Position numbers and translations under genes: made by a program. 64,000 nucleotides of DNA from Solirubrobacteraceae bacterium (GTDB lineage Bacteria > Actinomycetota > Thermoleophilia > Solirubrobacterales > Solirubrobacteraceae): positions 14,205 to 78,204 of the forward strand of contig DASYKG010000082.1 of the NCBI GenBank assembly GCA_035995645.1, given 5' to 3'. Shown piece after piece: positions 15,485 through 46,387 of the stretch; the first letter of the stretch is position 1; every line of letters starts with the position of its first letter. Below the pieces are notes generated by a model. The model had not been told where the DNA came from, did not search any database, and saw nothing but the letters and a program-made list of their open reading frames with translations.

Positions 15485-15519
15485 ATGGGCGATACTAGTT
15501 TGGGGCGATACTAGTTTGG
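15485..15519 (-). repeat. 16-bp tandem duplication containing the tRNA-Val 3' end (candidate att remnant)
   Basis: GGCGATACTAGTTTGG x2 (15488-15503, 15504-15519); ATGGGCGATACT (15485-15496) is the reverse complement of 31848-31859. Confidence 0.55.
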
Positions 15520-15609
15520 AAAGGTGCGAAAGTTGGCTTGGTAGAGCCGAACGCGGGATTACCTGCGAACCCTCGCCGACGCAGATGACAGCGCGCTCCT
15601 TCCGAGCCT

Positions 15610-16030
15610 GCCGTCAGCCGAGGCTCGTGAGGAACTCGCGCGGCGTCATGATCGGCGGGCGCGGGTCGCTGAGCTCGGTGAGATGCGTGTCGCCGGACAC
15701 GATGCAGTCGGCATCGACTGCCCGCGCGAGGGCGACCAGATAGTCGTCGTCTGGATCGGGCGCTCGCGCGTGCCTCCGGCTCAGCGGCCGAAACGCCCTT
15801 TTCGGAGAGCGTGCTCAGCAAGCGTCGATCTGGACCACGGGGACCGATCCCCTGAACCTTGGGCGGCCGAAGTGCTCGCTTGAGTTCAGCGAGCAGAGGG
15901 CTCAAATCACGTCGAGCTGGGAGGCGGCCCACCGTTTGGGAATCTGCGCGGGCCTTCCGGTCGGCGCGAACAGCGCAGACACACATAGACGTTGACGTGG
16001 AGAACTACCGTCGCACTCAGCGACGTGAGG
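15610..16030 (-). pseudogene. PIN-family TA toxin, multiply frameshifted; boundaries approximate
   Basis: Fragments in three frames: VVLHVNVYV / SALFAPTGRPAQI / SPLLAELKRALRPPK / DPDDDYLVALARAVDADCIVSGDTHL...IMTPREFL. Confidence 0.75.
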
Positions 16031-16152
16031 CATGCTGCTCTCGGATCTTGGCGTCGTCGAGGCGAAACTGAGTTCAGGTCGGGTTTGCGCCACAAAGCTC
16101 GGTTCGCTGGCTAACGGCGCGCGTGAAGCCCGCGAAGCAAACGCTCCGGAAA

Positions 16153-16177
16153 GCCTCGCTGGCCCGAACAGCGAGGC
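16153..16177 (-). terminator. Hairpin downstream of the giant gene (possible terminator)
   Basis: GCCTCGCTG-gcccgaa-CAGCGAGGC, 9-bp stem. Confidence 0.35.
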
Positions 16178-16353
16178 GCGGCTCCTTCCGCACGAGCCCT
16201 TCGTCTTTCAGACCGGTCGAGGTCTCCAGTGCGGCTTTCGGCCAACGATGCCTTCGTCGCGCCGGGCATGGAGCGCGCTTGCCCCAATCCGTCTCGCCGC
16301 TAAGTTCCTCGAACCACGAACCGCAACAAAAATCCTGGCGGGGAACAGCCGCA

Positions 16354-19300
16354 TCAGCCTTCGAGCATACTGCGATGCGCGAGTATGAGCCGCTCGCTGA
16401 AGTCCAGCGCGGCGCCGAGCGGTTCTTCACCGACCCAGGCGATCAGCTTGACGGGTTCTTCGCCCACGAACGCGTCGGGAACCTGTGCATATTCCCTCAG
16501 CTTTTCGCGCTTCCTCGCCCCTTGTCCTGCCACGACGATGACACCAGCATCGAAGTTGATCAAGTAGCTTCGCGCGAGCCTATTCGCAGGTCTGATCGTG
16601 CCGATAGCGCCACCTTCGAGCCTTATCGCGGGCTGCGTGCCGCAGTGAATTGTCGCAATCAGCCCTGCAAGCCCATGCCCGCTTGGGGAATTGGGCGCGG
16701 GCCCCAGCTCGTAGCCGAAGTGGCGCTTTCGTTCGACGTAGCCCAGCCTGTCTTCGCTCGGCATGAAACGCACCTCGCCCGGGATGATCCCCGACTGGCA
16801 CCGAGCGTTGCTCGGTCTCACGCGACAGCCCATCAACACTACGTTCGCCTGAACGCTGGTTTCGAGGACCTCGCCGCTGCTCGTGAGCTTCTTGCAACTG
16901 AGTTTGTGGTTACGCACGCGCATCACCACGGGTCCACCTGAGCCGGTGAAGCCAATCGGGAACAGTCCGCATTCCTGTTTGCCTTTGCTCTTCTTGCAGT
17001 AGCCGGTCCAACGAGGCGCGCGTGACTGCTGCCGAACGGCCAGGATTGCCGGCTCCGTGACCGCTTCGCCTTGCGAGTTTGAGAAGACGGCGTGGAACCG
17101 ATCGCCGGATTCTGCGACCGCCACATGTCCGAGGACGAGCGAGTACGAGGTCGCGCCGATTATATCGGCGTACGCCCCGCCGGCGTGGGATCGCTGCCAG
17201 CGGACAACCGGAACCGGATTGCCTTCGGCGCCGGCGGTGAAGACCGCCTGCACACCATCTGGGACGGTCACATCTTTAGGCTGCAGCTTGATGTTCGGGG
17301 CCGCGAGGGCCTTTCCGATCTCGATGCCTTCGCTGCGCTCGGTGCTGTGGCCGACTTCGTTGCTCGCCGTCACCTCGCACCAGATTTTGTGCGATGCATC
17401 GGCCGATGAGACCAGATAGTCCTCGCCGGTGGTGCCGGTCGGGGTGCCGTCGCGATCCCAGATGACGGCGTAAGTCGGCGATGGATATCCGGCCCACCGA
17501 CCCTTGTCGCACGTCAGATGTGCGCCGACTTCGGCCTGCCCTTGGATCGCTGGTGCACTTGTCGCGTTCGGCGCTTCGGTCACGAACACTGGTGCGCCGA
17601 CCGTCGTGTTCGTGCGCCCGTCGCCGGTCTTGACGATCAGCGTCGGCCTGTATTCCCCGCCGTGCTTGTACACGTGCGGGGTACTCGAACCGGAAGCCGT
17701 GGTGCCGTCGCCGAACTGCCATTCGTAGGTCAACGCACGACCTTCCGGATCGACCGATTCACCGCCGTTGAATTCGACTAGATACGGTGCGCCGCTGCGC
17801 TGCGACGGGTTGCTGAAGACGGCTTGGGGATTCTTATCGTGATGCGGCGTGACCGTCGTGTCGAGCGACACCTGCTCGCCGCTCGGAGCAAGCTGCTTGC
17901 CAACCGCTTCGACTTCCCATTCGCCGGGTTCCGGGTCGGGGATCGTGTAGGTCTCAGATGTGCCGGTGAGACTGTGTTCGACACCGGCCGGAATGTTTCC
18001 CCGGTCGATCGTCGTGCCGTTCGGCGCCTTGAACCGCAGTTCGACATCGCTTCCAGGCCACCGAACCACTCCGTTCAGCGCGGCGTCGAGGTCGGTCACC
18101 ACCGCCTTCTCGGTGAGGTTCTCCCCCGTGTGCAGGTTCTGGCTCGTTCCCTGCGGATTGGCGATCTCTTCCTCCAGGGCTTCCGCCATCGCTTCCTGCC
18201 CCCCTTTGTTCGGGTGGAAGGATTCGACCAGGCCACGTGGGCCAATCGGCGAGATTATCGGGTTGAAGAACGAATCCGGCGCGCCTTGGCACACGTCGTG
18301 GCCGTTGAAGCGCCGGCGTCCGTTGTAGTCGTTCGGGTTGACGAATTCGGCGCCCGCGGCGTGAGCGGCAGCTTCGATTTCGGCGTTCACGTCTTCAACC
18401 GTTTCATGCCAGTATTCGATGTCCGTGCCGCTGATGAGATCGCAGGTGAGCTTCGTCGAGAGCCCCGGCGCTCGTTCAGGGAATATCTCGGGGTAGCCCA
18501 TGACGATCACGCGAGGGTGGCCGGAAGTCTTGGCGATCGCTTCGTAGATGCCTTTCAGTCGTGAGCGCAGCCCCGGCATCAGAGCAGCGACGACCGGTGC
18601 CGCGGCGGCCTTGCAAGGAGGCAGCAGGTCGACCTCGGGGATGTTCACAACACGATCGACGATGCAGCCGATCAGGAAGTCTGCGAAGTAAACGTCGTTG
18701 CCGCCCATCGACAGGGTAACCAGGTTCGACCCCGGTGCGATCTCTTCCGATTGCGCCTTCGTGTTGCTCTCCTGGGGCGACCAGAAGGCACCCGTCTTCG
18801 CCCCGCTGCACGCCTTGAAGTTGAGGACTTCCAAGTTGTGCGTACGTTTCGCCGCGATCTTGAGGTAGGCCGATTCTTCCGAGCGGTGACAACTGTTTTC
18901 TCCCGGGTTTTCGCCGCGCGTTTCCGGCTCGAACGGCGGGTTGCCCTCGCCCGAGCTGAAGGAGTCGCCGAGGCCCGTCGCACGGCACCCGCCGAGGCTG
19001 TCGACGGCCGTCGTAGGCGAGGCCGTGACCGCGCCTTCTTCGCTTTCTACGGTCAGGGTGTAGGGCGCGACCTCGCCCTGCGTCGAGGTGCCCGCGAACG
19101 AGGCAGTGGCGAGGTTGCCCGTCAACGAGCCGCCGCTTAGGGTCGTTCCGTTGATCACGCCGGCCCATTTCTTGAGCGGGAAGTCCGGGTCTGTGAACGT
19201 GGCTGTCCCGGCGACGGCGCTGCTCCCGCATTCAGATTCGTCGGCCACCTGGATGTGCGGGTACTCCCCGGGGGTCACCTGATCGCTCCCGATCATCGGA

Positions 19301-22300
19301 TGGACCATCGTCCACCTGCCGTTGACGAGCGAGCTGACGGCGAAGTAGCTCTGCGGATCCGACGGAGCGTCCCTGACCACAGCCTTCGTGCTGCCCAGCT
19401 GTTGCGCAGTCGCATCAGGTGTGTTCGGGAAATCGGTTTCTCGATCTGGTGTCTTGAAGACCTTGTATGCGGTAGCGCCGGGGACGGGGTCCCATTCGAG
19501 CGCAATCGCGCTTGCGTTGCGGCGGTGCCCTTTGATCGTGGGCGTTTCCCCAAGGCTGAGGACGCGGTCGTGAGTGACCAGCGAAGGGTGCAGTTCGACG
19601 TCGCCGCCGACCTTCTGGATGAAGGAACGCTTGAGGTCGACTTCTCCGGTTGCTTCTGGCACAAGGATGAATTCGCCGCTCCAAAAAGTCTCGCCCGGCC
19701 CTATTTCGCGCGTCGCGTAGGCGTTCTGCTGCGCGGGCTGCTCGATGTAGCCGTGTCGCCCTCGTTTCAGGAGTTCTATTTGGGGGTCGTAGACAGGCAC
19801 GTCGGCGACGTCCTTCATCCCCACCTTGACGTGGAATGGATAGCTGTCTTTTAGCTGCTTGTCCACGTCGACTGTCAGCTGTATCGCCGATGCGCCCCAC
19901 ACGTGGATCGGCGTCGTCGTCGCGGCGCTGAGGTTGAGGATTCGCCCGAACGGTTCGAGGCTGGCGGCATACGTCGCCGCGACGTTGTATTCGCCTTCGG
20001 TATCACCGCGCAGCACCCATTGCGCCGTCGCGCTCCCTTCGCCGGGGATGTCGGGCAGGCTCTGCGTGTAGGCCTGCTTGACGGCCGTCGGCGCAAGGCT
20101 CATTCCTCCCGGCACCGAGATCGTGGCGTGCCCGCCTGAGAGCGTAAACGGCGCGGGGGCGAGGTTGTCGACGATCATGCTGACGCTGAAGAATTCCTTC
20201 AGCCAGCTCGCCCTGAAGGGGATCACCAACGAGGAGAGGATCGGGGCTTCCGCGCCAGGCACAAACGTGACTGTCGTGAAGATCGTCGCTCCGCCCGCGT
20301 GCCATACACAAGTCGTCTTGCCGTCACAGCTACCACCGACGAAGCCTCCGCCGCCAATATAGCCTCCGAAGGCTCCCGCACCTCCACCAACGCCACCACC
20401 ACCGCCGCCCGCCGGCGCGAAGGGAACGACATTGATGTGCACGTCGAATTCGTAGACGTGCCTGTTCGCCGGGTCATTCGGATCGATGCCGGCGTCTTCG
20501 ATTTCCTTGAGGTTCATCAAGTGAGACGTAACGTGGGCCGTCGCGGTGTTGCCGGGCTTCAATTCGACCGTGCCTGCCCCTTCGTGGCCTTGGACGAGAG
20601 CGTGGGTGGCGGTCGGGATGTAGCTGGGCTTGTAAACGTAAGCCTCGTATTCGCCGTCGCCCAGCCCGTACAGATGTGCCTTGCCGTCAGCTCCGGAGAT
20701 GCCGCGGACGCGCGTGCCGTCGCCCAGGATCACGAGCACTTCCGCGCCTTCGAGCGGCGAGCCGCCCGATTCGACGTCCTCGACGTACCCTTCGCCACCC
20801 GGCTTCGGCAAAACGTGGATCGTCACCGAGGTCGAGTCGTGCCGCCCGGGAGCGCTGACGGTGAGGATCGCTTTGTAGTCACCGGGCGCTGCGTACGCGT
20901 GTTCGACGGTGCCACCGTCCGCTTCTTCACCATCGCCGAAGTTCCAACGGTAGCCCGCTATGCCGCGCAGCGGGCGAGAGTCTTCGCCGTCGAGCGTTAT
21001 CTTTTCGCCGGAGATCACGGTCTGGTCTTCCCCCGCCTTGGCCTTTAGCGGTTCGGGCAGCGTGACCGTGATCGTGCGCGTGATCACCACGTGTTCGTGA
21101 CCATCAGTCACGTCCAACCGCATCTCATAGACACCCGGTTCGTCGTAGGTGTGTTGGAACGATTTCGCAGGCAGTACGCCGCTCGCGCTGCTGCCGTCGC
21201 CGAATTGCAGCTGGTAGCCGAGACCGTCTTCGTCGGGGTCGGCCGCTTCGATCGTGGCGGTCGTCGTCAGCGGTGCCGGACCGGAATCGCCTGCTACCTG
21301 CAACGACGCGGTGGGCGGGCGGTTGACGATCGTGAAGGCGGCTTCGACGACCGGCGAGACGTTGCCGGCGGGGTCAATAGCTCGCACCTTGAAGCGATGT
21401 TCGCCGTTGGCGAATTCTTCGGCGAAGAAGTTCTCCCCGCCACAGTCGTGCCATTCGCCTTCGTCGACCGCGCACTGCATTTCCCCTGCCTCTGAGGATT
21501 CGTAGCCGAAGCCGAGGTTGCCGCTGTGCAGCGGTTCGCTCGGAGCTTTGGTGAGCGTCGCGATCGGTGGCGTCGTATCAAGGTCGAACTTCCGCGAGAC
21601 CGCAGGGGCTTCGGCCTGACCGAATCCGTTGACGGCGCGGACGAACAGCGTGTGTTCGCCGTCGGGCAGCCCCTCGAGCGTGAGCGGGCTCATGCATGGC
21701 GCGAAGTCGCCTTCGCTGTCCACCGAGCATTCGAGGCTCCCTTCTTCGGTGGCCGAGAAGACGAAGGGCCCTGCCGCACGAGTGCGGGGACCCGGCGCTT
21801 CAATGATCGAAGCTTCGATCCGCGCTTTCGCGCTGATCGGTGCGGTCGGGTCGGAGGTCGCGGCTTCACCGGTGCCAGCGGCGTTGCTCGCGGTTTCGCG
21901 CACGCGCAGCTCAAGGCCGACATCGGCATGCGCCACCTCGTAGCCGCTGCTCGTAGCTCCTTCGATCGCTTCGCAGGCTTCGCCGTGGGAGTCGCAGCGC
22001 AGCCAGCGGTATGCTCGACCCATCGGTTCGTTGCTCCAGCTTCCTGGGCCGGCATGCAGCTGACCGCCCTCGTGAGGCGAGCCTTCGACCTGTGGCGGAC
22101 TGATGTTCACAGGCACGGCAACGCTTACGAGCTCGGTCGGGGCGGAGACGGCGGGCTCGCTCGCACCGCCCGCGTTGACGGCCCGCTCCGTGACGACGAT
22201 CCTGTGCCCCACGTCTGCTTCACCGAGCGTGTAGCTCTGCGCTTCGGCTCCGCCGATCAGAGTGCAGTTCTCGCCGTTCGCATCGCAGCGTTCCCATCTG

Positions 22301-25300
22301 TAGGCGAACGATTCAGGGACGTTCGTCCATTCGTCGCGCACCTCGCTCAGCGTGGCGCCCTCCACCGCCCCTCCTTCGATCTCGGGAACGTGCAAGTTCC
22401 GAGGCGGCAGTGTGATCACCACGGCCGTCGCTTCGGAGATCGCCGGGTCGCTCGTACCGCCGGCGTTGCGAGAGAGGACTTCCACGCGCAGCTCGTGACC
22501 GACGTCGGCGTGGCCCGCCTCGTAGGTTTCCGCTTCCGCGCCATCGATAGCCGCGCAACCTTCGCCGCGGCTGTCACACCGCAACCAGCGGTAGGCGTAT
22601 TCCTTCGGTTCGTTCGTCCAGGCACCTTGCGAGCTCGACAGCAGGTGGCCTTCCTGCGGGGTCCCAGTCACAAACGGCGCGCTTTCCAGCTCGGGCCGCG
22701 CCGCCACGATTACATCGGTGGGCGACGAGGCGGCTGGTTCGCTTTCTCCCCCCGCGTTCGAAGCGATCTCCTGCACGGTGATCGCGTAACCAACGTCTGC
22801 GGCGGTAAGCCTATAGCCGGGAGCTTCGGCGCCCGGGATTGGCAGGCAGCTGGTCCCGAGCGCGTCGCACCGCTGCCAGCGGTAGGCATATTCGCTCGGT
22901 TCGCCGGTCCACCCACCGTGCTTCTCGCTGAGCATCTGACCCTGCGCGGCGCTTCCTTCGACCGCCGGTGCGGCAAGGGCGTGCGGCGGGAGCGGCAGGA
23001 CCTGCGCGCTCGGTTCGGACGTTGAGGCGCCCGTACCGCCGGCGTTGCGCACCGTTACTTCGACGGCGAGCTCGTGATCGACGTCTTCGTGGACTGGTTC
23101 GTAGGAGGCGGACGTAGCGCCAGCGATCGGCGAGCATGCATCACCCTGCGCGTCGCAGCGCAGCCAGAGGTACTCGTATTTGTCGGGTTCGTTCGTCCAC
23201 GAGCCGGTCGAGCTGCTCAGTTCGTGCGCTTCCTGTGCGACCCCCGAGATCTGGGGCGCTTTGACGACGACCGGCGATGAGGCGACGACCTGCGGTGTCG
23301 GCGGGGAGGGCACGAGCTGGCTGTAGCCGCCGGCGTTGTGCGCCCTCTCGGCGACCACGGTGGTGTGCCCGACGTCCTGGCCGGTCAGCTTGTAGGTCGA
23401 CGCGTTCTGACCGGAGAGCACTGAACATTCCTTGCCCGTGGCGTCGCAGCGCTCCCACTGGTAGGTGAAGCTGTCGGGTTCGTACGTCCATTCGCCGTGA
23501 TGCTCTTCGAGCGTGCCGCCTTGCTTGGCCACGCCCGTGACCGTCGGGGGCGCGATCGTCGCGGGAACGGGCGGCACGACGACGGCGGTCGGTTTCGAAT
23601 CGGCGGGTTCGCTGAGGCCGCCGGCATTTTCGGCGCGTTCCTCGAACTCGAGCCTGTGTCCTACATCAGCCGCGATGGGCGTGTAGGCGTCTTCGTTCGC
23701 TTTGTCGATGGCCGTGCACGACGCGCCTGCGCTGTCGCAGCGCAGCCACTGCAGCTTCCTCGTCGTCGGGTGGCGCGTCCAGCTGCCGTTTTCAGCCGTC
23801 AATGCCTGACCCTGCTGGGCAAAGCCGATGATCGTCGGCACGTGGATGCTCGTCGGTGGGAGCGGTAGCACGATCGCCGTCGGCCCCGATGTCACGCCTT
23901 TGCCGGCCCCGGCCGCGTTCGTGGCGCTCTCTTCCACCTCGAGCCTGCTGCCGACGTCGGCTTCCACGGGTTCGTAGGCCTGCGCGCTCGCGCCGCCGAT
24001 CGTCTGACATCCGAGCCCTTCGCTGCTGCAGCGGATCCAGCGGTAGGTGTAACCGGTCGGTTCGTGCGTCCACGTGCCGTGCACCTCGGCGAGCTTGTGG
24101 CCTTCCTGGGCCGAGCCCGTGACGCTGGGCGAGGCGGTCGCGACCGGCGGCGGGCTGATCAGGTCTGCGTTGATTTCGCTGGTTGTCGAGCCCTGCGTGG
24201 CGCTGACCGGATCGGCTTCCAGCTGGTTGAGTCGGTGGTCGTACCACTGCACGTTGTATTCGCTCGAGAAAGGGCTGAACTCGATGCGGTAGCTGCCCGT
24301 GGGAAGGCCCTGGGCCTTGTAGGTGCCGTTCGCTCCCGTCGCTGTCGATGTCGCATAGCTGCCGGTTTCTGCGTTGAGGACGTAGACGTTGATGCCGGAC
24401 AGCGCCGCTTTGCTGTTTGCGCTGCGCACGATGCCCGTGACGATCGCGCCTGTCGCGAGCGATGCGTCGATCCCGCCAGTCGTCGCGCCGAGCACAACCG
24501 CGACGTGTTGCCCTTCGGCGGCGTTGCGCTTGCCGGAATAGTACTGCCCGGCGTAGTTGAAACCGGCGTTTTCGAAATACACCGTGTATTCACCGGCAAG
24601 CAAGGCGGCGATCGTGTAACGGCCTTTCGCATCCGTGCGCCCGCAGTAGCTTTCAAATTCGCCGATTCGAGTGGCGCAGGCACGGATCTTTTCAATCGGG
24701 CCGCCGCCGGCCTGCGCGGTGACGGTCCCGGAGACCTCGCCGCCGAGCTGCATCGGGGCATTGATTCCGGCCACCGTTTCCCCTTCGTTCACTTCCAGTT
24801 GCTGAGCTTCCGAGGAGCGCGTCTTGCCCGGATACCACTGCAGCAGGTAGTTGAGCGCGTTTTCGAAGGGCGAGCGGAACTCGACCGCGTACTTGCCGGT
24901 GACCAAGCCCGCGAGCGTGTATGTGCCGTCGGCCGCCGAGCGAACGCAACCCGCGTAGATGAAGCCTTCGCGCATGGCACAGACTTCGATTCCAGCGAGG
25001 GGCGTGCTGCCGCCCGCGTCGGTGACCCTGCCCGTGACTTCGCCTCGCTGTCGCACAACCGCATCGATCGCAGACGTGCTCTCCCCTGCCGTCACCGACA
25101 CGGAATCGGCGTCTTCGAGGTTGTGCTCGCCGTTGTAGAAGGCTTCCGTGTAGGAGTAGAGCGAGAAGCTCACCTTGTACTGGCCGCTACCTAGGCCTAC
25201 GATCGTGTAAGCGCCGTGACTGTCGCTGTACGCGCAAAGCTGACGTTCTACTTCCGCCATCGCGTGTGCGCACGCGAGCACGTTGGACAGAGGCGTGCCG

Positions 25301-28095: not shown

Positions 28096-28499
28096 TCCAG
28101 CCCCCAGTCTCGACGACCTGTCAGCGCGGCACCATACCTAAAATGGAATAAGTCTGTCTAGTCGAACTTGCTGTGACCGCGCATGGCGGCGACGGGTGCA
28201 CTTAGCTCGTGGCCGGATCCCTGTCGTCACGAATGCTCCCGAGCCCGACGCAAGTAGGTCGCGCCACAGCGTCAGGGGTGCGTCGCAATCTCGCTCTCGC
28301 GTGGGAGGCGTCCGGGTTGCTGCTCAACGAGACGCTCGAGTTGAACGAAAAGCGTGTGAGAGCGATCGTTACCAGCGCCATGAGCGACAAGCTCAGGTGC
28401 TTGCCGGGCAAGTCAGGCGTGCGCGAGGGCGCGCATCTGACTCACCGGGTGACGCCCAAGACGACTCAACGTCGCGTAGGACGAGGCGTGCCCATGCGT

Positions 28500-29023: not shown

Positions 29024-29033
29024 CTTTGAGCCG

Positions 29034-29372: not shown

Positions 29373-29377
29373 GCGGC

Positions 29378-31908: not shown

Positions 31909-31927
31909 TTGGTAGCAATTTGGTAGC
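31909..31927 (+). repeat. TTGGTAGC direct repeat with 11-bp period (candidate integrase arm site)
   Basis: TTGGTAGCAATTTGGTAGC about 50 bp downstream of tRNA-Val. Confidence 0.45.
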
Positions 31928-33578: not shown

Positions 33579-33698
33579 GACTAAAGGATATCGGGCGATC
33601 ATGCGGTGGCTGGCCTCCGGTTCGACGCACCGCGAACTCCGAACCCGACGTCGAAGCTCGCCCCGGCACCCGTCCATCTCGTTCAGGAACGCCGAAAA

Positions 33699-34666: not shown

Positions 34667-34715
34667 AGCGCGCAGCCTATGCGACTGAGTGCCCTTCTCG
34701 CGCTTTTCGCTTCGT

Positions 34716-35738
34716 TCAGGAATTCTGCAGCGCGACCTGCGCTGACCGGTCCGGCAGCAGCCGACCGTCTGCGTCTGGGTGGACTCCACACACCACGAGC
34801 TGCGCACCAACGGGGAGGGCATCGACGTCGAGGCCCGCGTCGCTCAGGCGACGAATCACCACGGTGCCGTCGTGACTACCGCTAGCCTCCTCAAGCCACA
34901 CCGTCAGCCCGCCGGCTGCACTGCTTTCGGCCCTGGCGACACGGCCTCGGACGGCGCCGCGCGTCCAACTCGGCGAGATTGCCTCCCAAAACGCCGGGCA
35001 TTGGGGGGCGAACGAGCAAAATCGGCACGTGACCTCGCCGGCGTTCGCCGGCGGCACAGTTCCCGTGAGAGCCTGGTAGCCGACTAGTGATTCGACCGCC
35101 TCGTCGGCGACCCTTTCGCACGTCCCAGACTCGATGCTGACGGACACAGGTGGTCCACCGAAGCGCAGCAACACACCGCTCTCCGGCCATCGGCCAGAGC
35201 GGTCGTGCTCCAAGACTGCGTATAGCTGCAATTGGACCTGGAAGTGCGGGATAACCTCGCCGTCCTCATCGACCGTACGCCCGGTCTTGTAGTCAACTAT
35301 GACGTGTAGTCGCTCGGAGTCGATGATCAAGTCGACGACGCCGTGGATGGCGCCCTCTCTCGCGTTGAGCGCTTCCTCGCTGAGCGTGACAGCGCCGGGC
35401 CCAGCCTCGCTCGTCAGCTCGAGTATGCGGGCCACGATTCGTCTCAACCGTGCGACTGCGACACGGACGCCCCGCACCTCACGACCTGGAGCCTGCCTCT
35501 CCAGTTCCCCCACAAAGCGCTCCTCAACGAGCCAGGCGGCGTCCTCTCCCACAAGCTCTCCAAGCCTGATGCACTCGGCCAGCGCGACGTGTAGAGAGTC
35601 GCCGATAATCTGAGCGTCCGCCTTTGCCGCCGACTTCTCTGCATGTTGCTTGAATGCGACTCTGAGGGGGCATTCCGCGAGGTCTTTCAGTCGCGACGGC
35701 GAGACGGAGTTCAGAGCTAGAGCCTTCGGCAGGGTCAT
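34716..35738 (-). CDS. PD-(D/E)XK nuclease, Cas4/AddB-like with four-Cys cluster
   Basis: ECPLR, GVVDLII, VDYKTG, QLQLYA, CRFCSFAPQC; ATGA-coupled to the helicase. Confidence 0.88.
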   Translation of the reverse strand: MTLPKALALNSVSPSRLKDLAECPLRVAFKQHAEKSAAKADAQIIGDSLHVALAECIRLGELVGEDAAWLVEERFVGELERQAPGREVRGVRVAVARLRRIVARILELTSEAGPGAVTLSEEALNAREGAIHGVVDLIIDSERLHVIVDYKTGRTVDEDGEVIPHFQVQLQLYAVLEHDRSGRWPESGVLLRFGGPPVSVSIESGTCERVADEAVESLVGYQALTGTVPPANAGEVTCRFCSFAPQCPAFWEAISPSWTRGAVRGRVARAESSAAGGLTVWLEEASGSHDGTVVIRRLSDAGLDVDALPVGAQLVVCGVHPDADGRLLPDRSAQVALQNS

Positions 35739-38700: not shown

Positions 38701-41110
38701 GCGCGTAGTCCTCAATGAACCCGACATACTCCGGCTCCTCTGCGCGCAGCCAAAGCAGTGCCTGCCGGGCCTCCTGGCTCGTATTCTCTCCCCGCGCGCT
38801 CGCGAGCGCGAGGTCTACTCTCGATTGGGCCCCTGTTTCGCGCAGAACTGTCGTCACGACGAGCTGGCGCACGAGATCGCGGTAGTGCGATACCTCCAAG
38901 CCAGCGGATAGCTTTGCGGCATCCATCCGGCTGTCAGAGAACAGGACGAGTTTGCGGTTATCGTCCATATGTCTCAGCAGTTGGTCGCCTAGCACCTGGT
39001 TGGCCTTTTCGAATCCCATCCCCATGCTCCTGATTGAAGAGCGCGTGCGGGCGCGATCCTCGACAGACCGTTCGGTCCGGCCAGACCAACGTCGCTCTGA
39101 TTCATCTCCGCAGCTTGGGCAAAAAATCGGCATCGAGTTGATTTGATCGAGCTGGAGGGCCTCTGGATCCGCCCCGTTCACCCCTTGAACGTGAAACGTC
39201 CAGCCGGTGTACCCCTGAGCGCGGTTCTCGACCTGCCCAACGTGGGGCTCGTAGACGGACTTCCGGAACCCAAAGTGGTAGGCACCGCGGTTCCAGTGAG
39301 GGTTGGCGTAGGGAACCTCGGGGTCCTCACGCTGTGGCCAGTACAGCATGTAGGTGGTGGCATTCTGACCGAGCCGGGCCCGCTCAGGGATGCCCTCCAA
39401 ATCGGGGGAGTCCGGGAACAACTGCCACGAGAGCGAGTCCGGGTCCTGGGTGTAGTAGCCGCCGAGAAATACGTCCCCGCACGTCTCGCAGTAGAGGAAC
39501 TCGAGGACCCGCGCGCCGCAGTGATCGCAGTGATACCGCGGCTGGTCATAGAGTCGCCCGATATTCCGGCGAGCCTCGCTCTGGCCTGGTATGCAGTCCC
39601 CATTGGAGCATGCCCAGACCCCGAGCACGGTTCGCACAAACAGATGTCCGCGGACACGCCCGCCGGCCCGCCCTACGGAGTCCACCAGCCCATAGACGGC
39701 CTGGTTCCGCACCTCGCGGTCGTGCTCGCCAGGCATCAGCCGCTCGCCAATATGATCGATGCTGCGGGCGGCGGGGCGCCCGTCGTCTGCTACGCACGCA
39801 CGGTCGAGCGCGGAGCCAAGCCTGAGTGCTTGCGCTAGCGCCGTAGCCGCCTCGGCAGAAGCCCCGCTGATCTCACTCAGCTGGTCTACGTATGGCGTTA
39901 GGTCCTCGGGTCCCAGCTCGGCCTCCAGTGGCTCTCCCGGCCAAATATCGAATCGGTCAATCGGCTGCGCGAAGAAGCCCTCGATAAACCGCTTGTCTCG
40001 CTGCCCGTCCAGCGAAGCGCTAGTCGCGAGCACGCGGAGCTTCTCTGGTCTGCGGATCAGGTCGAGGCGATGCAGCAAATTCCGAAGCAAATAGGCGACC
40101 TCGCTGCCCTGAGTTCCGCGATACATGTGAAGCTCGTCAATCACCAGCGTGAAGACGCTGTCATCCAAATCGAGCCACGCACGAGTCGCCTCAAAGACGT
40201 TGGTGTCGCGCTGCCGCCGCAACAGGATGTTCAGCATCGAGTAGTTGGTAATAAGCAGATCCGGCGGCGCATCCTGAATGTCCCAGCGGCTTCGCATCTC
40301 TGCTCCGTCAAGGCGGGGGATGTATAGCGACACGTCCTGGTTCCGGACTGGGTTATCCGCTTCGAGCTGAATCGCCCGCGCAGACGCAGCGGCGGCCTCA
40401 CTGAGCTGCCCACGGAGCTGGTTCACCGCAGACTCCGTGGCGGGGCTCCCGGTGCCGGGCGTTTGGCTTGTGTAGCGACCGAAGTAAAAGCGATGCCCTG
40501 GCCGCTCGGCCTCGAACCACTGCCTTGCGGTTGGACCGTCGAGGGCTCGGCGGAGGCGCACCATCTGATCCTCCACCAACGCATTCATCGGGTAGAGGAT
40601 CAACGCCCGCACGGCCTTCGGGCGGCCCGGGCCTTCCTCGCGCTGCGAGTGCCAGGTCTCTTTGCCGGTCCACCAGTCGTCGCCGACGGGGGCCGGGTCA
40701 GTCCACCCCGTCGACTCGGCAACCAGCTGCGCGAGGATCGGTAGGAGAAACGACTCGGTCTTACCCGAGCCTGTTCCTGCGGTCACTACCGAGCACCTGC
40801 CGGCGATCGCGGAGCGCAACATCTGCTGCTGATGAAGACGGAGCGACGGCGCTCCCGCCATCAGGCCGGCAGCGACGAAGTCGGCAAGCTCCGACGGTGC
40901 GCCAGCGTCGATCAGTCCTTGGCGGACATCGCCCGAGGCGCTCTTCCACTCCCTTATCGGCTCAACGTATGGCTGTCGCCACGCGACGCCGTCCGTATCC
41001 AGTATCTCGCGTCTTTCTGTCTCGAGCTCGGTGCTACGAAGGCCGAACGGGGTGTCGTAGTACCGGAACAGGCCGGATCTAAGAGATTCGAAGATGGAGT
41101 CGAGTTTCAT
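35735..41110 (-). CDS. DEAD/DEAH helicase with DUF1998 (DruE-like), 1791 aa
   Basis: AGTGSGKTESF, IDELH, ATSAS, TTTMEVGVDIG, QRVGRAGRRG; C-terminal CDSSCYGCLRAYEN. Confidence 0.92.
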   Translation of the reverse strand: MKLDSIFESLRSGLFRYYDTPFGLRSTELETERREILDTDGVAWRQPYVEPIREWKSASGDVRQGLIDAGAPSELADFVAAGLMAGAPSLRLHQQQMLRSAIAGRCSVVTAGTGSGKTESFLLPILAQLVAESTGWTDPAPVGDDWWTGKETWHSQREEGPGRPKAVRALILYPMNALVEDQMVRLRRALDGPTARQWFEAERPGHRFYFGRYTSQTPGTGSPATESAVNQLRGQLSEAAAASARAIQLEADNPVRNQDVSLYIPRLDGAEMRSRWDIQDAPPDLLITNYSMLNILLRRQRDTNVFEATRAWLDLDDSVFTLVIDELHMYRGTQGSEVAYLLRNLLHRLDLIRRPEKLRVLATSASLDGQRDKRFIEGFFAQPIDRFDIWPGEPLEAELGPEDLTPYVDQLSEISGASAEAATALAQALRLGSALDRACVADDGRPAARSIDHIGERLMPGEHDREVRNQAVYGLVDSVGRAGGRVRGHLFVRTVLGVWACSNGDCIPGQSEARRNIGRLYDQPRYHCDHCGARVLEFLYCETCGDVFLGGYYTQDPDSLSWQLFPDSPDLEGIPERARLGQNATTYMLYWPQREDPEVPYANPHWNRGAYHFGFRKSVYEPHVGQVENRAQGYTGWTFHVQGVNGADPEALQLDQINSMPIFCPSCGDESERRWSGRTERSVEDRARTRSSIRSMGMGFEKANQVLGDQLLRHMDDNRKLVLFSDSRMDAAKLSAGLEVSHYRDLVRQLVVTTVLRETGAQSRVDLALASARGENTSQEARQALLWLRAEEPEYVGFIEDYARGFPLELSDLDLAQRALVRLSSGATQLPSLQREAARALLRLGINPAGPTYSLSGYGSGREHPWHTIYDWNVSPPRAKPQAELDQEAVELREEIDTAMLEEIVNSMFSGSSRDIESISLAHTAPDPALRLSTPPGMSEDAFADVVAGALRILGQRRRFTGLRNPNDAPPGYLRRWLTAVGDRHGVPQEVLIERLSSSLGDQLQSWLLERHALWIKPGGQLQWRCDNCSRVHLHSAGGICTYCNRPLGDPVSRTATGENYYAWLATEAGDPFRLHCEELTGQTGRDESARRQRAFQGVFLNDEQELVTAIDLLSVTTTMEVGVDIGALRGVMMANMPPMRFNYQQRVGRAGRRGDPLALALTVCRGRSHDDYYFDHPEKITGDPPPAPYIDLSRPEILQRVLASEVLRQAFWQLSLEDEVELGSNVHGQFGACGRWRAQGGGRGHGSFVRDWVSTHAAAIQAAVAALLEGSDLESQAATLMAWTGTDMLDAVDQIAEANHADADLSQALAEGGLLPMFGFPTRVRYLYHDYPKGRSLPPKGVIDRDIEIAVSQFAPGAETPKDKAVHTAVGIGAWELYGGRWQYHEDPLGPQEELLYCRACLHVEPLAEGAPQACPVCGETDPRFGPITLRQPEGFITDMRPRNYDGQFEWRPAASGGRLVPGAVSRVVEVDNLEARVGADYLYVLNDNSGAGFRLAPAVNSNINGWFSVDLKEASARQYRIPDLRDDATVTVALGSRFRTDTLLLSPVDVPSKLLLDPSRLESGVAARATLYSAGFLVREAAARQLDVQGRELRVGLWFEPRPGQAARGWIFLADALENGAGYCTHLGSHSELTKLIESTGAYLTELEDEERHRCDSSCYGCLRAYENQAYHALLDWRLARDWVDLARGRDLDTSRWAEMEADVARAFATAFDAECEQLDGDVWLIRFYGRSILVNHPMENPDESFWSNRLSLAAADAEDRALVSGLGSLEIVSSFDLLRRPGKIAAGG

Positions 41111-42000
41111 TGCGTTGAGATGCGCCCCAGTTCCTGCTCTAGCGATTCGGCGATCCTAACCGCCAGCCACTCGGGTACGTTCACGTAAATGATGTCCCCG
41201 TGATCGTTCCAACCCGGGCGCAGCCCGCTGCATAGCGCGGACGCCCGCGCGTGCAGTACGGGCAACGGCAGCATCCAGGGCGCGAAGAGCGTGCCGTTCG
41301 TGCCATCGGGCTGCCAGTAGAGCAAGTCGGCGGCTCCGAGGCGACGAGCCTCCGCCCAAGTCCCCACCGCCAGATCGACCTTGTAGCGTGCCCCATCATC
41401 GTCAGCGAACTGCATGCGCCGTGGCCCGGCCACGTCGTAGAGATACAGCCCCGGGTCGGTGTCGCCATCAACGCGCACGAAATTCTCGTCGAGATCGAAG
41501 CGCTCAACTCCGTAGTAAATGGCCATCGGAGGCTCGAGATATGGCCGCAGCATCGCGTCAAGCGGTGGCAAGACATCGGCCAGTCGCCCGGCAACCGAGT
41601 GGGCGAACGGCAGCTCGAATTGGCTAGCCAGACGCTCTAGCGCTTGCTCGGAGTCCGAAGCGACGAAGCACGCATCCGGCGCAGCGTGCTGGGTGCGGAG
41701 GTCCACGAAGATATCCGGCTCCTCAAGAGAGTTGAGTGACGTCGTCAGCCGGGCTGTTCTTGCGCCCACGACGAGACCGTAGCCAGCTGCGTCCGGAAGC
41801 AGCGTGACCGTGGGGCGCACCGCGCCCCAGCGTGCCCCGGGCCAGTCCACCTCGAGGTGGCCTAGTGCCGACATGACCCTGAGGGTCCGGAGCGCAGGCA
41901 CTTCCTCGCCGGTCGCCCAGGCATGGGCGCTCTCGAAGTCCGCAAGGGTGCCGGACCCCCGCTCCGCCGTCCAGTGGAGTAGCTGCTCAAACCCATTCAT
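41107..42000 (-). CDS. Hypothetical protein (DruG position)
   Basis: ATGA overlaps at both ends; LSALGHLEVDW-like motif; no recognisable catalytic motif. Confidence 0.75.
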   Translation of the reverse strand: MNGFEQLLHWTAERGSGTLADFESAHAWATGEEVPALRTLRVMSALGHLEVDWPGARWGAVRPTVTLLPDAAGYGLVVGARTARLTTSLNSLEEPDIFVDLRTQHAAPDACFVASDSEQALERLASQFELPFAHSVAGRLADVLPPLDAMLRPYLEPPMAIYYGVERFDLDENFVRVDGDTDPGLYLYDVAGPRRMQFADDDGARYKVDLAVGTWAEARRLGAADLLYWQPDGTNGTLFAPWMLPLPVLHARASALCSGLRPGWNDHGDIIYVNVPEWLAVRIAESLEQELGRISTQ

Positions 42001-44051
42001 CAGGCGCCGCACTCGCTCTGGAGGAGCTCTGCCGCGGCCTGGTAGTCGTCCCAAAGCTCTGGATCGCCCTCGGCCAGCTCTGCCGCAAGCAGCAGACGGA
42101 CCCAATCTGAGGCATCGTCATCAGCCGCCAGATCGCCGGGCGGAAGACTGGCCCGCGCCCGTGCCTTGAGCTCACCGGATGGCCAGCGCTCGACTGAGTA
42201 CTGAACGGGGAACTCTGCCCAGGCCTCGTAGAGGTGTCCCGTCAATCCTTGCTCAACCATCCACGCCGGCATCGCCGGCTTCGTAACTGAGACAAGCTCT
42301 CCAGAATGCCGACCGAGCAGCCATGCTTGTTCGGCGTGGCGTCGCAGCAACACTGGCGCCTCCCCCCAGCGATCGTCGGCGCCGCCCACATCCGGCCCGG
42401 CCACGACGATCGCAGTGTCGTTGGCGTCCTCAATTCGAGCCAATACGCGGTGAGCAGAGAGTTGGCCGCCCTTGTCGCGCTCAATCACGTGTCCAGGCTG
42501 GGCGTGCGCCGGCGGAATGACCAGGTGAGATTCAACCATCCGGACGGTGCGGGTAATCACGCCCCCGTAGTCGACGACGTGGGAAGCCGCGTCATCCTTC
42601 GATAGGTGGTCGGCAAGTCTGACTTTGTCCGCCCGATTGCTGATCTGCCGGCCGTCCAGCGCGAGCCAGAGCGTATCCTCGGTCGTCGGGGGCAGCCAGA
42701 CGTCCGGCGCGCCGCCGCTCAGGTAGCTGCCGGCCAGAGCAAGCGGAAGCCCGCCGCGGAGCGCGAACCGATGCTTCAATGTCGGGCGGCGGCCCGCAAG
42801 TGCTCCTTCGAGTACCTCGTCGCCCTGCAAGACGATGTCGCCGTACAAACTCCACGCAGCAAAAGTGCCGGGCGCTCGCTGCGCCGTGATCGGCTCCGTG
42901 CTCCAGCGCTCCAGCTGCTGCCGCACCTGGTCCGCCGCGGACGGTGCGGCCAGAACAAAATGCCTTTCGCCCGGCACAAAAGCGCTTACCGACGCCCATC
43001 CTCCCAGCTCCTCATCTAGCTGCAGCACGTGGACCTCGCTGCCGGGAAAAGTGAGGCGGCATGTCTCATCGCCCAGCATTCCACCGCGCAGCAAGTACCG
43101 CGGGTCGCTGCCCCCAACAACGAAGACGCCATCGTCGACAGCTGCCGAGCATGTCGCTCCGCCAAGCTGTCCGGCGACGCGATCTGGATAGCCGTCGGGC
43201 TGCAGCGCTTGGAGCGACACGCTGCCCGGCCTCCGCAGTCGCACCACCACGCGCAGCGCGGCAGCTCGAGTGCTCGTCCGATCGAAGCGCGTGCCATCCC
43301 AGTGGTGAGCGTATGCCCCGAGGATGCGGCCAAGGGTCGGCCAGAATTGCTCATCCTCGAGCAGGCGGTTCGCCCCAGCACTTAATGACTCCTCGGGGGC
43401 CCAAGCGCGGAAATACAGAACGAGGACGTCCTCATCGACCGCCTCGTCAGGATCGAGCTGAATCCAGTGGAAGAAGTCATCGAGGCGCCTGACGTCCGAC
43501 CCGAGGAACAGCGTTTGTGATAACGGTCGCCCGATATGTGTAAACGGAGCGTTCTCAATGACGGTAGAGATGCCTCGCGAACCTCCGAGCCGTTCGTCGA
43601 GCCACCAGCTGTAAACGCTCCAGAGATAGTCGAGTGAATCGCCGAAGCCGCTCGGAGTGCCCGGCTCGGCGATCCCGAGGAGACTCCGAAGCTGAGCGTA
43701 GTAGTTGTTAGGTGCGTAGTTCCCGGTGCCCATGCGTGTGGCCGCGAGAACGCAAACCGCAAGGAGATCCAGGAACGGCGGCGATCCGACGCCGCCGTCG
43801 AGCTTCCACCGGCGACCTTCGCGCTCAATCCGGTGGAAGTAACCATTGTGATTGCCAGGTAACCCGAGTCGACGCCGTACCGTCTCCAGGACCGAGTCGA
43901 CGGCATCGTCCGCCTCTCCGCTGAAGATGTCGCCGAGCACCTCCTCGTCAATGAAGAAGAGCACAGGCAAACCCGCGGACCGCTCCGTAAAGAAACGGCC
44001 CTCCAGGGCACGACACCAATCCTCGCGAGTCCAGCTCGTAGTGCTCCCCAT
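42000..44051 (-). CDS. Hypothetical protein (DruF position; start could be as far up as 44132)
   Basis: Long open frame (710 aa from 44132); PPFLDLLAVCVLAATRM...NYYAQL...HIGRPLSQ; coupled to the next gene. Confidence 0.78.
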   Translation of the reverse strand: MGSTTSWTREDWCRALEGRFFTERSAGLPVLFFIDEEVLGDIFSGEADDAVDSVLETVRRRLGLPGNHNGYFHRIEREGRRWKLDGGVGSPPFLDLLAVCVLAATRMGTGNYAPNNYYAQLRSLLGIAEPGTPSGFGDSLDYLWSVYSWWLDERLGGSRGISTVIENAPFTHIGRPLSQTLFLGSDVRRLDDFFHWIQLDPDEAVDEDVLVLYFRAWAPEESLSAGANRLLEDEQFWPTLGRILGAYAHHWDGTRFDRTSTRAAALRVVVRLRRPGSVSLQALQPDGYPDRVAGQLGGATCSAAVDDGVFVVGGSDPRYLLRGGMLGDETCRLTFPGSEVHVLQLDEELGGWASVSAFVPGERHFVLAAPSAADQVRQQLERWSTEPITAQRAPGTFAAWSLYGDIVLQGDEVLEGALAGRRPTLKHRFALRGGLPLALAGSYLSGGAPDVWLPPTTEDTLWLALDGRQISNRADKVRLADHLSKDDAASHVVDYGGVITRTVRMVESHLVIPPAHAQPGHVIERDKGGQLSAHRVLARIEDANDTAIVVAGPDVGGADDRWGEAPVLLRRHAEQAWLLGRHSGELVSVTKPAMPAWMVEQGLTGHLYEAWAEFPVQYSVERWPSGELKARARASLPPGDLAADDDASDWVRLLLAAELAEGDPELWDDYQAAAELLQSECGA

Positions 44052-44233
44052 TCCAAGCGTCGATGAGACTGCCGTCAGGCTAAGGCAACGATTTGGCCTC
44101 GGCGTTTTGGGACTTCTCGTGGCAATGTACACGGACTAAGGAACGGACTCGTCCCACTACTCGCCACCGGATCGATGCCGAGGCGTTGGCGGGGGCCCGC
44201 CTGCCAAGTGATGTGTCCAGAGCGGTGATCCGG

Positions 44234-44665
44234 CTAGGACTGAGCGGCGTGGACCTCACCGAGCACTCGGTCCGCGACCTCGTGAGTGGGCTCGTGCTCC
44301 CATGCGTGTATCACGCGCCAGCCAGCGTGCGCGAGCACGGCGTCGACGCGGCGGTCCCGGGCGATGTTGCGCTTCAGCTTGGGCTCCCAATAGCCGACGT
44401 TGCGGGCCGGGACATTGCCGTGTACTGGGCACGAATGCCAGAAGCACCCGTCGATGAAGACAGCGATCCGCCATCGCGTAAACACCACGTCTGCACGCAC
44501 TCGAAGATCGTCAAGCCGAATGGGATAATCAACTCGAAACCGAGCCCCTCGCGCATGGAGCATTGATCTGAGCGCGCGCTCCGGCCGAGTATCCCGACGA
44601 CGGTTGCGGCGCATCCTTGCCGACACGGCTGAGTCGAGGGGCTCAGGGTAGGAGACCGCGCCCAC
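44234..44665 (-). CDS. vsr: Very short patch repair endonuclease
   Basis: SARMRRNRRRDTRPE, RADVVF, IDGCFWHSCP, WEPKLKRNIARD, WEHE. Confidence 0.93.
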   Translation of the reverse strand: MGAVSYPEPLDSAVSARMRRNRRRDTRPERALRSMLHARGARFRVDYPIRLDDLRVRADVVFTRWRIAVFIDGCFWHSCPVHGNVPARNVGYWEPKLKRNIARDRRVDAVLAHAGWRVIHAWEHEPTHEVADRVLGEVHAAQS

Positions 44666-45916
44666 TCAGCGTCCCTCGAGCGGCGCCACGACCCTGCGGG
44701 GGGATGGGCCTCGCCCAGCCCCCGGGTGATCGGCATGCTGTGCTCGTCGCTCGAGGTATTGGGCAGGTACCGGCGCGAACTGCTCCGGAGGTGGGCAGTC
44801 GTCGCGCGCTTTGGGCACAAGTGGGACTCGGGGAGATAGCGCCTGTCCGAACACCTCGCGTCGAATCTGCAGCCCGAGCGCCTCGCCTACTGGCGGCGGA
44901 ACGGCATTGCCAACCTGGCGGTGCGCCGACGCCGCGTTTCCCGCGAACGACCACTCCTCTGGGAAGCACTGAAGCCTTGCCAGCTCGTCGATCCCGAGGC
45001 GCCGACTCCGCCAGTGGAAAGGTCCTGTCGCCGGGCCGGCCTGAGCCTGGATCGTCCACGAAGGTCGCGCCTTCGCTAGCTTCAGGAGGAAGCTCCAGTA
45101 GCGCGTACGCCATCCGAACAGAGGCTCGCCGGTGCCGCGAGGCGTGTGATGCAAATAGTTACATCCCTCTGGGATGCTCGGCAGCAGTTCAGCCCAAACG
45201 CCACGCGGCCGAAGTGCCGGATCGAACTCAGGGTCATCGAGATGTCCGATCGCGTCCCACGCGGTCATGTATCTCTCGACCGCCGCACTGCCGTTGGCTG
45301 CTCTCGCCGCGGGCCCGTGCGTCGCAGCCGGTCTGCTCAGACCCGAGCCATCGCGTGCGGCAAAGACGAAAACTCGCTCCCGATGTTGGGGGATCCCGTA
45401 ATCCGCGGCGTCAACAAGAAGCAGGTATGGCTCGTACGCGGTGCCATTGCGCCGATTGATGCGCGCAAGGGAACTTCGCAATACATCGAGACCCTCGTAC
45501 GGCTGCGTGACGCGCTTCCTCGCTGCCGTAATGCCCTTGACGTTCTCAAGCAACATCGCCTGCGGCAGCGTTGCCTCAAGGACACGGAAGTACGCCTCGA
45601 GTGTCCTTGCGCGGGGGTCGCGCATCCGCTTGGCAGCGTTATCGTGCCACTGCGCCGACTTCGAGAAAGGCTGGCAGGGAGGCCCACCGGCGAGTAGGAC
45701 CACCTCGCCCTTCGTTACGCCGAACGTACTGAGCACATCACTGGCGCGAAGGCCGTGAATATCGCCCGTCTGAGCCAGCGACCATTCAGCACGGTTCGTG
45801 CGAAGCGTCTGCTGACAGTCGGGATCGACCTCGATGCAGCCAGCAATCGAGAACCCTGCGCGCTCGAGCCCTACGTCGAGCCCTCCGGCACCGGTGAACA
45901 GCGAGAGAACCTTCAT
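44666..45916 (-). CDS. DNA (cytosine-5) methyltransferase (DruM position)
   Basis: Motifs FTGAGG, GGPPCQPFS, ENVKG, QHRERVF, RQVGNAVPP. Confidence 0.95.
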   Translation of the reverse strand: MKVLSLFTGAGGLDVGLERAGFSIAGCIEVDPDCQQTLRTNRAEWSLAQTGDIHGLRASDVLSTFGVTKGEVVLLAGGPPCQPFSKSAQWHDNAAKRMRDPRARTLEAYFRVLEATLPQAMLLENVKGITAARKRVTQPYEGLDVLRSSLARINRRNGTAYEPYLLLVDAADYGIPQHRERVFVFAARDGSGLSRPAATHGPAARAANGSAAVERYMTAWDAIGHLDDPEFDPALRPRGVWAELLPSIPEGCNYLHHTPRGTGEPLFGWRTRYWSFLLKLAKARPSWTIQAQAGPATGPFHWRSRRLGIDELARLQCFPEEWSFAGNAASAHRQVGNAVPPPVGEALGLQIRREVFGQALSPRVPLVPKARDDCPPPEQFAPVPAQYLERRAQHADHPGAGRGPSPRRVVAPLEGR

Positions 45917-46240
45917 CCGTGCGGGCGCGGGCAGCAACTCGTGACGTTGCCTGCCTCGCCTAGGCGTCGCAACGCATGAAGAACCAGCATCGCGGATGAA
46001 GTACAGCACTTAGGCCGGCTGGATGTATCTGGGCGCGCGACCATGTATTCCGGTGCAAACCGCCGCCGTGCCGGTCACGCCAGTCCTTCGGCCCGGGGCC
46101 AACGCTCGAGACCCGGTGCCGAGTCGTTGCTATCCCGCCCGAGATATCCGCCTGAACTAATCGCTACGAGCCGCCGCCGACCGTCCCCCTAGGCACCTGA
46201 GGCAGTCATGCTGGACCTGGGCGCGACAACTGCTTGTACC

Positions 46241-46260
46241 AGGCGCCCCACAGGCGCCCC
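46241..46260 (+). repeat. Candidate integrase arm-binding tandem repeat (distal att)
   Basis: AGGCGCCCCACAGGCGCCCC, 84 bp before the tRNA-Cys 3' copy. Confidence 0.7.
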
Positions 46261-46344
46261 AAACTACCGATTTCGAGCGTCATCTGAGGGCACCTGAGGT
46301 CCCCCAAAACCGCATAGGAAAGCCAAACACCCTTGCCAGCCTGA

Positions 46345-46387
46345 CTGCAAAGCCGTTTACACCGGTTCGATTCCGGTCGTCGCCTCT
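46345..46387 (+). mobile_element. att core: 43-bp duplicate of the tRNA-Cys 3' half, inverted relative to the tRNA
   Basis: CTGCAAAGCCGTTTACACCGGTTCGATTCCGGTCGTCGCCTCT is the reverse complement of 30338-30380. Confidence 0.93.

Follow-up and report, generated by a model that had tools for sequence, protein, structure and literature searches.

Why should two neighboring tRNA genes point away from the genomic islands whose attachment (att) sites carry copies of their own 3′ ends? The question is raised by a stretch of 64,000 nucleotides (hereafter the window; contig DASYKG010000082.1, positions 14,205 to 78,204) from a Solirubrobacteraceae bacterium whose genome was assembled from a metagenome, in 90 contigs. 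The window contains a core of three chromosomal genes, namely an intact tRNA-Cys(GCA) at 30339–30410 on the minus strand, a trypsin-like serine protease gene at 30624–31682 on the plus strand (Pfam Trypsin_2, E = 1.3e-33) and an intact tRNA-Val(GAC) at 31786–31858 on the plus strand, the two tRNAs being recognized by ARAGORN and by Rfam (65 and 64 bits, respectively). The G+C content is 0.62–0.68 across about 14–47 kb, versus 0.70–0.74 in much of the flanks. As in tRNA-integrating islands and integrative mobilizable elements, integrase sequences lie by the tRNAs, 3′-end copies mark the far ends, arm-type repeats are present, G+C is low and the cargo is variable. Unlike in canonical tRNA islands, however, both att pairs are inverted rather than direct. 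We consider it probable that two canonical islands, one at tRNA-Cys and one at tRNA-Val (the Cys island and the Val island), were disrupted by a small inversion combined with a deletion.

For the Cys island, a repeat search returned a perfect inverted repeat of 43 nt (100% complementary) between 30338–30380 and 46345–46387. It is the longest inverted repeat in 13–49 kb, comprises 42 nt of the tRNA-Cys 3′ half and one flanking nucleotide, and has only these two copies in the whole genome; a chance origin of the repeats was rejected. The distal att copy (46345–46387, plus strand), identical over its 43 nt to the tRNA-Cys 3′ half, is thus inverted relative to its tRNA, whereas the corresponding 42-nt copy in the related genome G009 is direct. 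Each att site is accompanied by arm-type repeats: two copies of AGGCGCCCC with 11-bp spacing are found at 30248–30267 on the minus strand (the integrase-proximal arm) and again at 46241–46260 on the plus strand (the distal site), in both cases about 70–105 nt to the left of the 43-nt copy in window coordinates, but on opposite strands. The same AGGCGCCCC pair also lies beside tRNA-Cys in the metagenome contigs L040 and L041, and G009 has the variant pair AGGCTCCCC as well as a homologue of the distal arm with the common motif TGAGGGCACCTGAG. The original prediction, which had posited an inverted 43-bp 3′ copy of tRNA-Cys with a matching arm repeat, was accurate on both counts.

The integrase that belongs to this site, int1′, is located next to tRNA-Cys at 29377–30169 on the plus strand (Phage_integrase, PF00589, E = 1.3e-24), but as a truncated and frameshifted gene. 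It lacks the N-terminal residues 1–132 and matches residues 133–152 in one frame and 152–392 in another, the frameshift lying near 29435–29440. In this integrase family, the residues missing from int1′ include the region before the catalytic domain. At the amino acid level int1′ is 90–93% identical to the full-length integrases P0002, P0004 and P0005 (392–395 aa), its orthologues overall being 72–93% identical, and soil metagenome contigs are the source of the closest full-length relatives. The names carried by int1 homologues point to a member of the Solirubrobacterales. Both L040 and L041 have an excisionase gene followed by int1, the AGGCGCCCC arm and tRNA-Cys, and L041 reads cargo, excisionase, int1 (90% identity), tRNA-Cys, protease, tRNA-Val and then a remnant of a Val island. 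The Cys island of G009 has tRNA-Cys (+), an arm, an int1 orthologue (−), about 18 kb of other cargo, the homologous distal arm and finally the direct 42-nt copy. Two further relatives, G003 and G014, contain a single copy of the Cys core and no integrase near it, so that the island is polymorphic for presence and absence. On the far side of the three-gene core, at 32288–32333, the window has a palindromic, operator-like element (GACACAGCAATTGCTGTGTC) with 87% identity to L040 4138–4183, which lies about 120 bp upstream of the excisionase of that element; relative to int1 the two are on opposite strands. Judged from this comparison, the 32288–32333 element would have kept the ancestral orientation, i.e., that of an int1 (−) frame, which is what one expects if the Cys-island DNA on its right stayed in place.

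The Val island has left a shorter att trace. The 3′ end of the plus-strand tRNA-Val, AGTATCGCCCAT, is found again, inverted, at 15485–15496, where the 12-mer ATGGGCGATACT is the reverse complement of 31848–31859 (the last 11 nt of tRNA-Val and one base), and a further 10-nt copy is present at 15503–15512 within the distal att copy (15485–15519, minus strand). The 10-mer AGTATCGCCC occurs three times in the window, at 31848 (+), 15487 (−) and 15503 (−), against 0.08 expected, and none of 100 shuffles gave three; an inverted 12-bp copy at 15485 had been predicted, and these counts confirm it. The Val copy alone is weaker evidence than the Cys copy. In four relatives (G002, G011, G007 and G017), AGTATCGCCCA is found as direct copies 5–8 kb downstream of tRNA-Val, the repeats being 20–30 nt long. 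As a separate observation, the att core of the window sits in an exact 16-bp tandem duplication (GGGCGATACTAGTTTG twice, 15488–15519), in which the stop codon of a 133-aa open reading frame (ORF) at 15097–15498 is also contained. The G017 locus (L033, G017:C5) has the tRNA-Val 3′ end three times in direct orientation (1608–1618, 2771–2781 and 9233–9243), indicating tandem or successive Val-island integrations, and its int2 homologue is frameshifted.

The integrase of the Val family is represented in the window by a C-terminal remnant only: int2′, at 29037–29376 on the minus strand, retains about 113–123 aa (PF00589 positions 89–168), lacks the N-terminal ~284 aa, and is 86% identical at the amino acid level to residues 285–407 of the G002 integrase. 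In G002 the Val element measures 8 kb and lies between direct tRNA-Val repeats; besides its 407-aa integrase it encodes an excisionase and a TrwC-like relaxase. Downstream of int2′ follows a backbone segment with small DUF7718-like ORFs (28320–29064, minus strand; weak Pfam matches, but similar at the protein level to parts of the islands of G002 and G017), which is 76% identical at the nucleotide level to L041 14274–14784; there, the part matching window 28320–28770 lies 1.4 kb beyond tRNA-Val, downstream of it and in the reverse orientation. The layout of L041 is the un-inverted arrangement that the proposed history requires. Next to tRNA-Val itself the window has a Val arm at 31859–31935 on the plus strand (CGTCGGATTTGGCTCTAGGGC ... 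TTGGTAGCAATTTGGTAGC), which aligns with the arm of G002 and is matched at 86% by G018; TTGGTAGC has four occurrences, against 0.45 expected, two of which are within this arm.

Given the shortness of the 12-nt Val match, the absence at its end of the arm repeats known from relatives, and the similar G+C on both sides of the core, one could imagine that there never was a Val island and that a single 31-kb tRNA-Cys island was inverted via chance microhomology of 12 bp between 15485–15496 and the tRNA-Val 3′ end. We rejected this explanation, which we regard as extremely improbable: int2′ matches the integrase of the canonical tRNA-Val island of G002 at 86% identity, the backbone segment next to it recurs in the elements on the Val side of G002, G017 and L041, tRNA-Val has a Val-island arm beside it, and the same att core forms a direct repeat in four relatives.

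That the core has turned around, with an island on either side, follows from a comparison with relatives. A scan for tRNAs in 13 same-genus loci showed the tRNA-Cys/protease/tRNA-Val unit in 11, and in 10 of these 11 it has the divergent layout tRNA-Cys (−), protease (+), tRNA-Val (+), the exception being G002 with a flipped tRNA-Cys. The housekeeping gene thrS (threonyl-tRNA synthetase; Pfam tRNA-synt_2b, HGTP_anticodon, tRNA_SAD and TGS), found in the window at 871–2859 on the minus strand and 77–81% identical in nucleotides to the copies of relatives, provides an anchor: in G002, G003, G005, G008, G014, G017 and G018 its distance from the core is 13–68 kb, and it is found on the side of tRNA-Val. 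In the window it is tRNA-Cys that faces thrS, and the protease (+) has the orientation of the segment with thrS, when that segment is counted as plus; in all seven relatives the relative orientation of the two is the opposite. G009 and G011 keep the relatives' relative orientation of thrS and protease, with thrS located elsewhere. The core is therefore inverted in this genome. Island-free relatives with the present core orientation, which would have spoken against the predicted inversion, were not encountered, and both island types do exist in canonical form, the Cys type in G009 (with its local layout in L040 and L041) and the Val type in G002, G011, G007 and G017. The alcohol dehydrogenase (ADH), carbonic anhydrase and TetR genes of the left flank are not syntenic in relatives.

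The left junction, J1, can be placed at 29376/29377, within a base or two and without filler, because the nucleotide homology to G002 int2 stops at about 29377 and the homology to int1 of L040 and L041 begins at 29377. Here int2′ (−) meets int1′ (+) head to head, whereas in relatives both genes are on the same strand, and the codons joined are not equivalent (about 285 of int2 to 133 of int1). Homologous recombination between the integrase genes was rejected as the cause, since these were originally in direct orientation and non-equivalent positions are joined. The right junction, J2, must lie within 31936–32287, because homology to the Val arm ends at about 31935 and the Cys operator-like element starts at 32288. 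This interval of about 350 nt has no recognizable gene, no homology to either island type and no integrase or excisionase fragments; attempts to pinpoint J2 by way of relatives gave matches limited to the Val arm and to toxin–antitoxin paralogues. Repeats or filler were also sought at J1 and J2, with nothing found beyond the 41-bp inverted copy at 28610–28650 described below. The breakpoints foreseen in the original prediction, near 29375 and between 31.9 and 33.2 kb, have in this way become a sharp junction on the left and a narrower interval on the right.

A clean two-break inversion would have left the N-terminal part of int2 facing that of int1 at J2, but this is found nowhere in the genome, and a plain inversion was rejected for that reason. 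More generally, the N-terminal 132 aa of int1, the N-terminal ~284 aa of int2, both excisionases and any relaxase module were not found in the whole genome; therefore at least one deletion must have taken place besides the inversion. The earlier claim that one inversion restores the canonical layout of both islands consequently needs correction, as an inversion alone does not account for the missing integrase and excisionase parts.

From these observations the following history may be proposed. Two integrative elements would each have entered the 3′ end of their own tRNA gene by tyrosine-integrase recombination and so have come to stand back to back around the three-gene core. In window orientation, the ancestral left part would have read thrS, the Val att copy (−), the giant-protein cargo, int2 (−), an excisionase, possibly a relaxase, and the Val arm; the core, tRNA-Val (−), protease (−) and tRNA-Cys (+); and the right part, the Cys arm, int1 (−), an excisionase (−), the operator, a sigma-like gene, HicB, Druantia, the distal Cys arm, the 43-bp Cys att copy (+) and an MMPL transporter gene. 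A rearrangement would then have flipped about 2.6–2.9 kb, from 29377 to a point in 31936–32287, comprising the 3′ part of int1, the Cys arm, tRNA-Cys, the protease gene, tRNA-Val and the Val arm. Since non-equivalent positions were joined, the inverted piece is shorter than 3 kb and DNA was lost, illegitimate (non-homologous) recombination is the probable mechanism. At one of the junctions, at least one deletion would have taken away the 5′ portions of the two integrase genes, together with both excisionases and any DNA that separated int2 from the Val arm. Either the breaks occurred inside both integrase genes and one deletion then ran across the reciprocal junction, or one break fell close to the Val arm and the other upstream of the Cys excisionase, and one deletion then created J1; the two histories, in both of which the inversion would have preceded the deletion, are equally short and are indistinguishable here. 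In the resulting layout, each tRNA faces away from the island it once hosted, the att sites of each pair stand in opposite orientation and no recombinase is left to either island, so that the cargo could presumably not be excised. It had been suggested that the islands are locked in by the inverted att sites. While these probably add to the immobility, its first cause would be the destruction of both integrase/excisionase modules.

Several points weigh against this history. Inversion by itself leaves the missing DNA unexplained, and J2 is bracketed rather than pinpointed. The Val att copy is 12 nt long, compared with 20–30 nt in relatives, and the arm repeats that relatives have about 100 bp inside the island are absent at this end of the window, which suggests that a further change took place there. 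The right flank past 46.4 kb shows no conserved synteny: MMPL and the DNA of 46.4–64 kb were near the core in no relative, so that the ancestral orientation of the right flank is deduced from the att structure alone. A match of G014 to window 50068–50313 was considered as right-flank synteny and rejected, as it reflects a paralogous LuxR-type response regulator. Lastly, the genome is known as a 90-contig metagenome assembly, and the k=31 contigs of the source run (Logan) end inside the 43-bp repeat, with no linkage across it.

The last point invites the suspicion that the assembly itself was flipped at the 43-bp repeat, and that in the true genome 30381–46344 has the other orientation and the core is as in relatives. 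In that form the Val att sites would be direct, and an attP-like arrangement of arm, core and distal arm would lie inside the Val island, beside a tRNA-Cys without adjacent island. The metagenomic origin of the genome, the breaking of the k=31 contigs exactly at the repeat, such that neither path is confirmed, and the fit of the flipped form to the thrS/core orientation of all relatives speak for this possibility. The independent k=31 assembly, from the only run in which this sequence occurs (X1), otherwise agrees with the window at a uniform depth of about 17×: it covers 28621–30366, across J1, and 31833–46372, including J2 and the entire Cys cargo, without differences, and a 13.8-kb contig stops at 28639, the k=31 contigs ending also at the 41-bp repeat 28610–28650, as k=31 predicts. 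The direction in which 30381–46344 is joined is thus the sole point left unconfirmed by that assembly. Against a flip, however, a 182-kb contig running through two 43-bp and two 41-bp copies would imply words or read pairs longer than the repeats, and the attB-like and attP-like joins expected for the flipped form had no match in JGI metagenome contigs, although this is weak because the source sample may be masked. A flip also calls for more events, in that a circular element would have had to be excised and illegitimately re-inserted into int2, with a deletion besides, and it retains the head-to-head junction of int2′ and int1′, which itself needs an inversion relative to the layouts of G002, G009 and L041. 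Overall, we think an assembly flip unlikely.

A biological counterpart would be an integrase-mediated inversion of exactly 30381–46344, between a resident attP-like Cys site and an inverted tRNA-Cys attB, which might still flip. The perfect inverted repeat and the arm-type repeats kept at both sites agree with such an event, and recombination between oppositely oriented sites on one molecule does lead to inversion, not excision (PMC8371274, section 12). Yet int1′ is frameshifted and without 132 N-terminal residues, and the genome contains no close paralogue of it, the best other integrase being 34% identical; an intact recombinase, as expected of a programmed invertible switch, is not seen here, int2′ being just a C-terminal third. 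A simple origin is hard to conceive for the precursor, in which an attP would lie within a Val island, joined to a broken int2, and J1 and J2, both outside the att cores, are left unexplained. We therefore hold this explanation to be very unlikely. A very small chance, likewise, is given to the idea that 30381–46344, with tRNA-Cys, protease, tRNA-Val and Druantia, is a flippable cassette alternating between an attL/attR form and an attP/attB-like form; its flipping could result from recombination on the short repeat or from an int1-family integrase that a newly arriving element provides in trans.

The inversion-plus-deletion history can be set against known systems. Compared with the canonical tRNA-Cys island of G009 and tRNA-Val island of G002, the integrases are orthologous (72–93% identity for int1, 86% for int2), but in the window each tRNA is separated from its own island by the integrase remnant or arm of the other, the integrases are truncated, and no excisionase or relaxase is left. 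In Thermococcus kodakarensis, homologous recombination between TKV2 and TKV3 caused an inversion that left the integrases chimeric (PMC8371274, sections 31 and 35); in E. coli O157:H7, inversions mediated by prophages are among the cases to which PMC5065196 refers. The window resembles these in that the inversion ends in two related integrated elements and affects their integrase genes. Those inversions are, however, homologous and large, take place between oppositely oriented elements and yield chimeric full-length integrases, whereas the integrases of the window were in direct orientation and the inverted segment is below 3 kb. Cryptic or grounded prophages and islands have decayed integrases or att sites. 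As in these, mobility appears to have been lost and useful cargo kept; unlike in these, two neighboring elements seem to have been put out of action together by one small rearrangement, and their att cores are still perfect. The event is distinct in being very small and probably non-homologous, in being accompanied by a deletion, and in disabling two tRNA islands while sparing the tRNAs and the intervening gene, but it adds one more case to a known class of events and involves no new mechanism. It offers a natural example of horizontally acquired cargo becoming permanent, i.e., of island domestication, whereby a complete Druantia system and the intact frame of a 3913-aa surface-type protein would have been fixed in a soil Solirubrobacterales genome. 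Both islands would escape boundary-prediction tools that rely on direct repeats downstream of tRNAs.

The cargo of the Cys island is a Druantia-type defense operon of five consecutive genes at 34716–46009 on the minus strand, identified with PADLOC and Pfam: a DruK-like PD-(D/E)XK nuclease, DruE, DruL, DruF and the C5 methyltransferase DruM (PADLOC: DruE4, 1926 bits; DruF4, E = 2.9e-71; DruL4, E = 1.6e-54; DruK, E = 1.4e-29; DruM2, E = 1.6e-69), the DruE helicase and its partner genes thus lying in one operon. The Val island carries a 3913-aa open frame at 16354–28095 on the minus strand, which is uninterrupted and contains repeats with a 291-bp period; it encodes numerous Ig-like, PKD and CarboxypepD_reg domains as well as a GDSL lipase domain at about residues 3042–3301. 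Whereas these frames are open, smaller genes have decayed. At the left end of the Val island, 15617–15814 on the minus strand is a PIN-domain remnant of a toxin gene (PIN_3, E = 1.1e-5, C-terminal 32 profile positions only). A sigma-factor-like gene at 32536–33151 on the plus strand (Sigma70_r4_2, C-terminal part) is split over two frames by a frameshift near 32790; the gene adjoining int1 in G009 is unrelated to it. Together with the frameshift of int1′, these remnants fit an old event, and a link between the locked-in cargo and the decay of toxin–antitoxin modules is plausible. Directly downstream of the Druantia operon are HNH and HicB genes, the latter encoding a HicB-like antitoxin (33273–33677, minus strand; HicB_lk_antitox, E = 2.6e-9), and right after HicB comes a HicA-like short frame (…GSHVRLKHPDRGISLTVPLHRELKRGTLAGIITDAGL…; 33140–33292, minus strand), the N-terminus of which, in a by-eye translation, seems shortened. 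To the right of the Cys island, the first chromosomal gene is that of the MMPL transporter (46407–48572, minus strand; Pfam MMPL, E = 3.5e-75), where the G+C content climbs.

Two other traces of rearrangement were noted. Within the Val-island backbone, 28610–28650 is a near-perfect inverted copy, 41–44 nt long, of chromosomal 5747–5787, and the homologous segment of G002 has a different stretch of about 70 nt in its place; the repair of a break may have left the copy there as templated filler, which would be in keeping with past illegitimate recombination in the region. In G002, tRNA-Cys (L027, G002:C1, 10640–11085) is on the strand of tRNA-Val, flipped with respect to all other relatives. It lies about 300 bp further from the protease gene, with the native 5′ flank still attached; a decayed duplicate of this flank sits beside the protease gene, and the flipped piece is bracketed by direct repeats resembling GGGAG(A/G)AGTTTTGGG. 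It appears that the locus was rearranged independently in G002, and if 30381–46344 were indeed a flippable cassette, the two together would mark the core as a hotspot at which integrases have driven rearrangements repeatedly within the genus.

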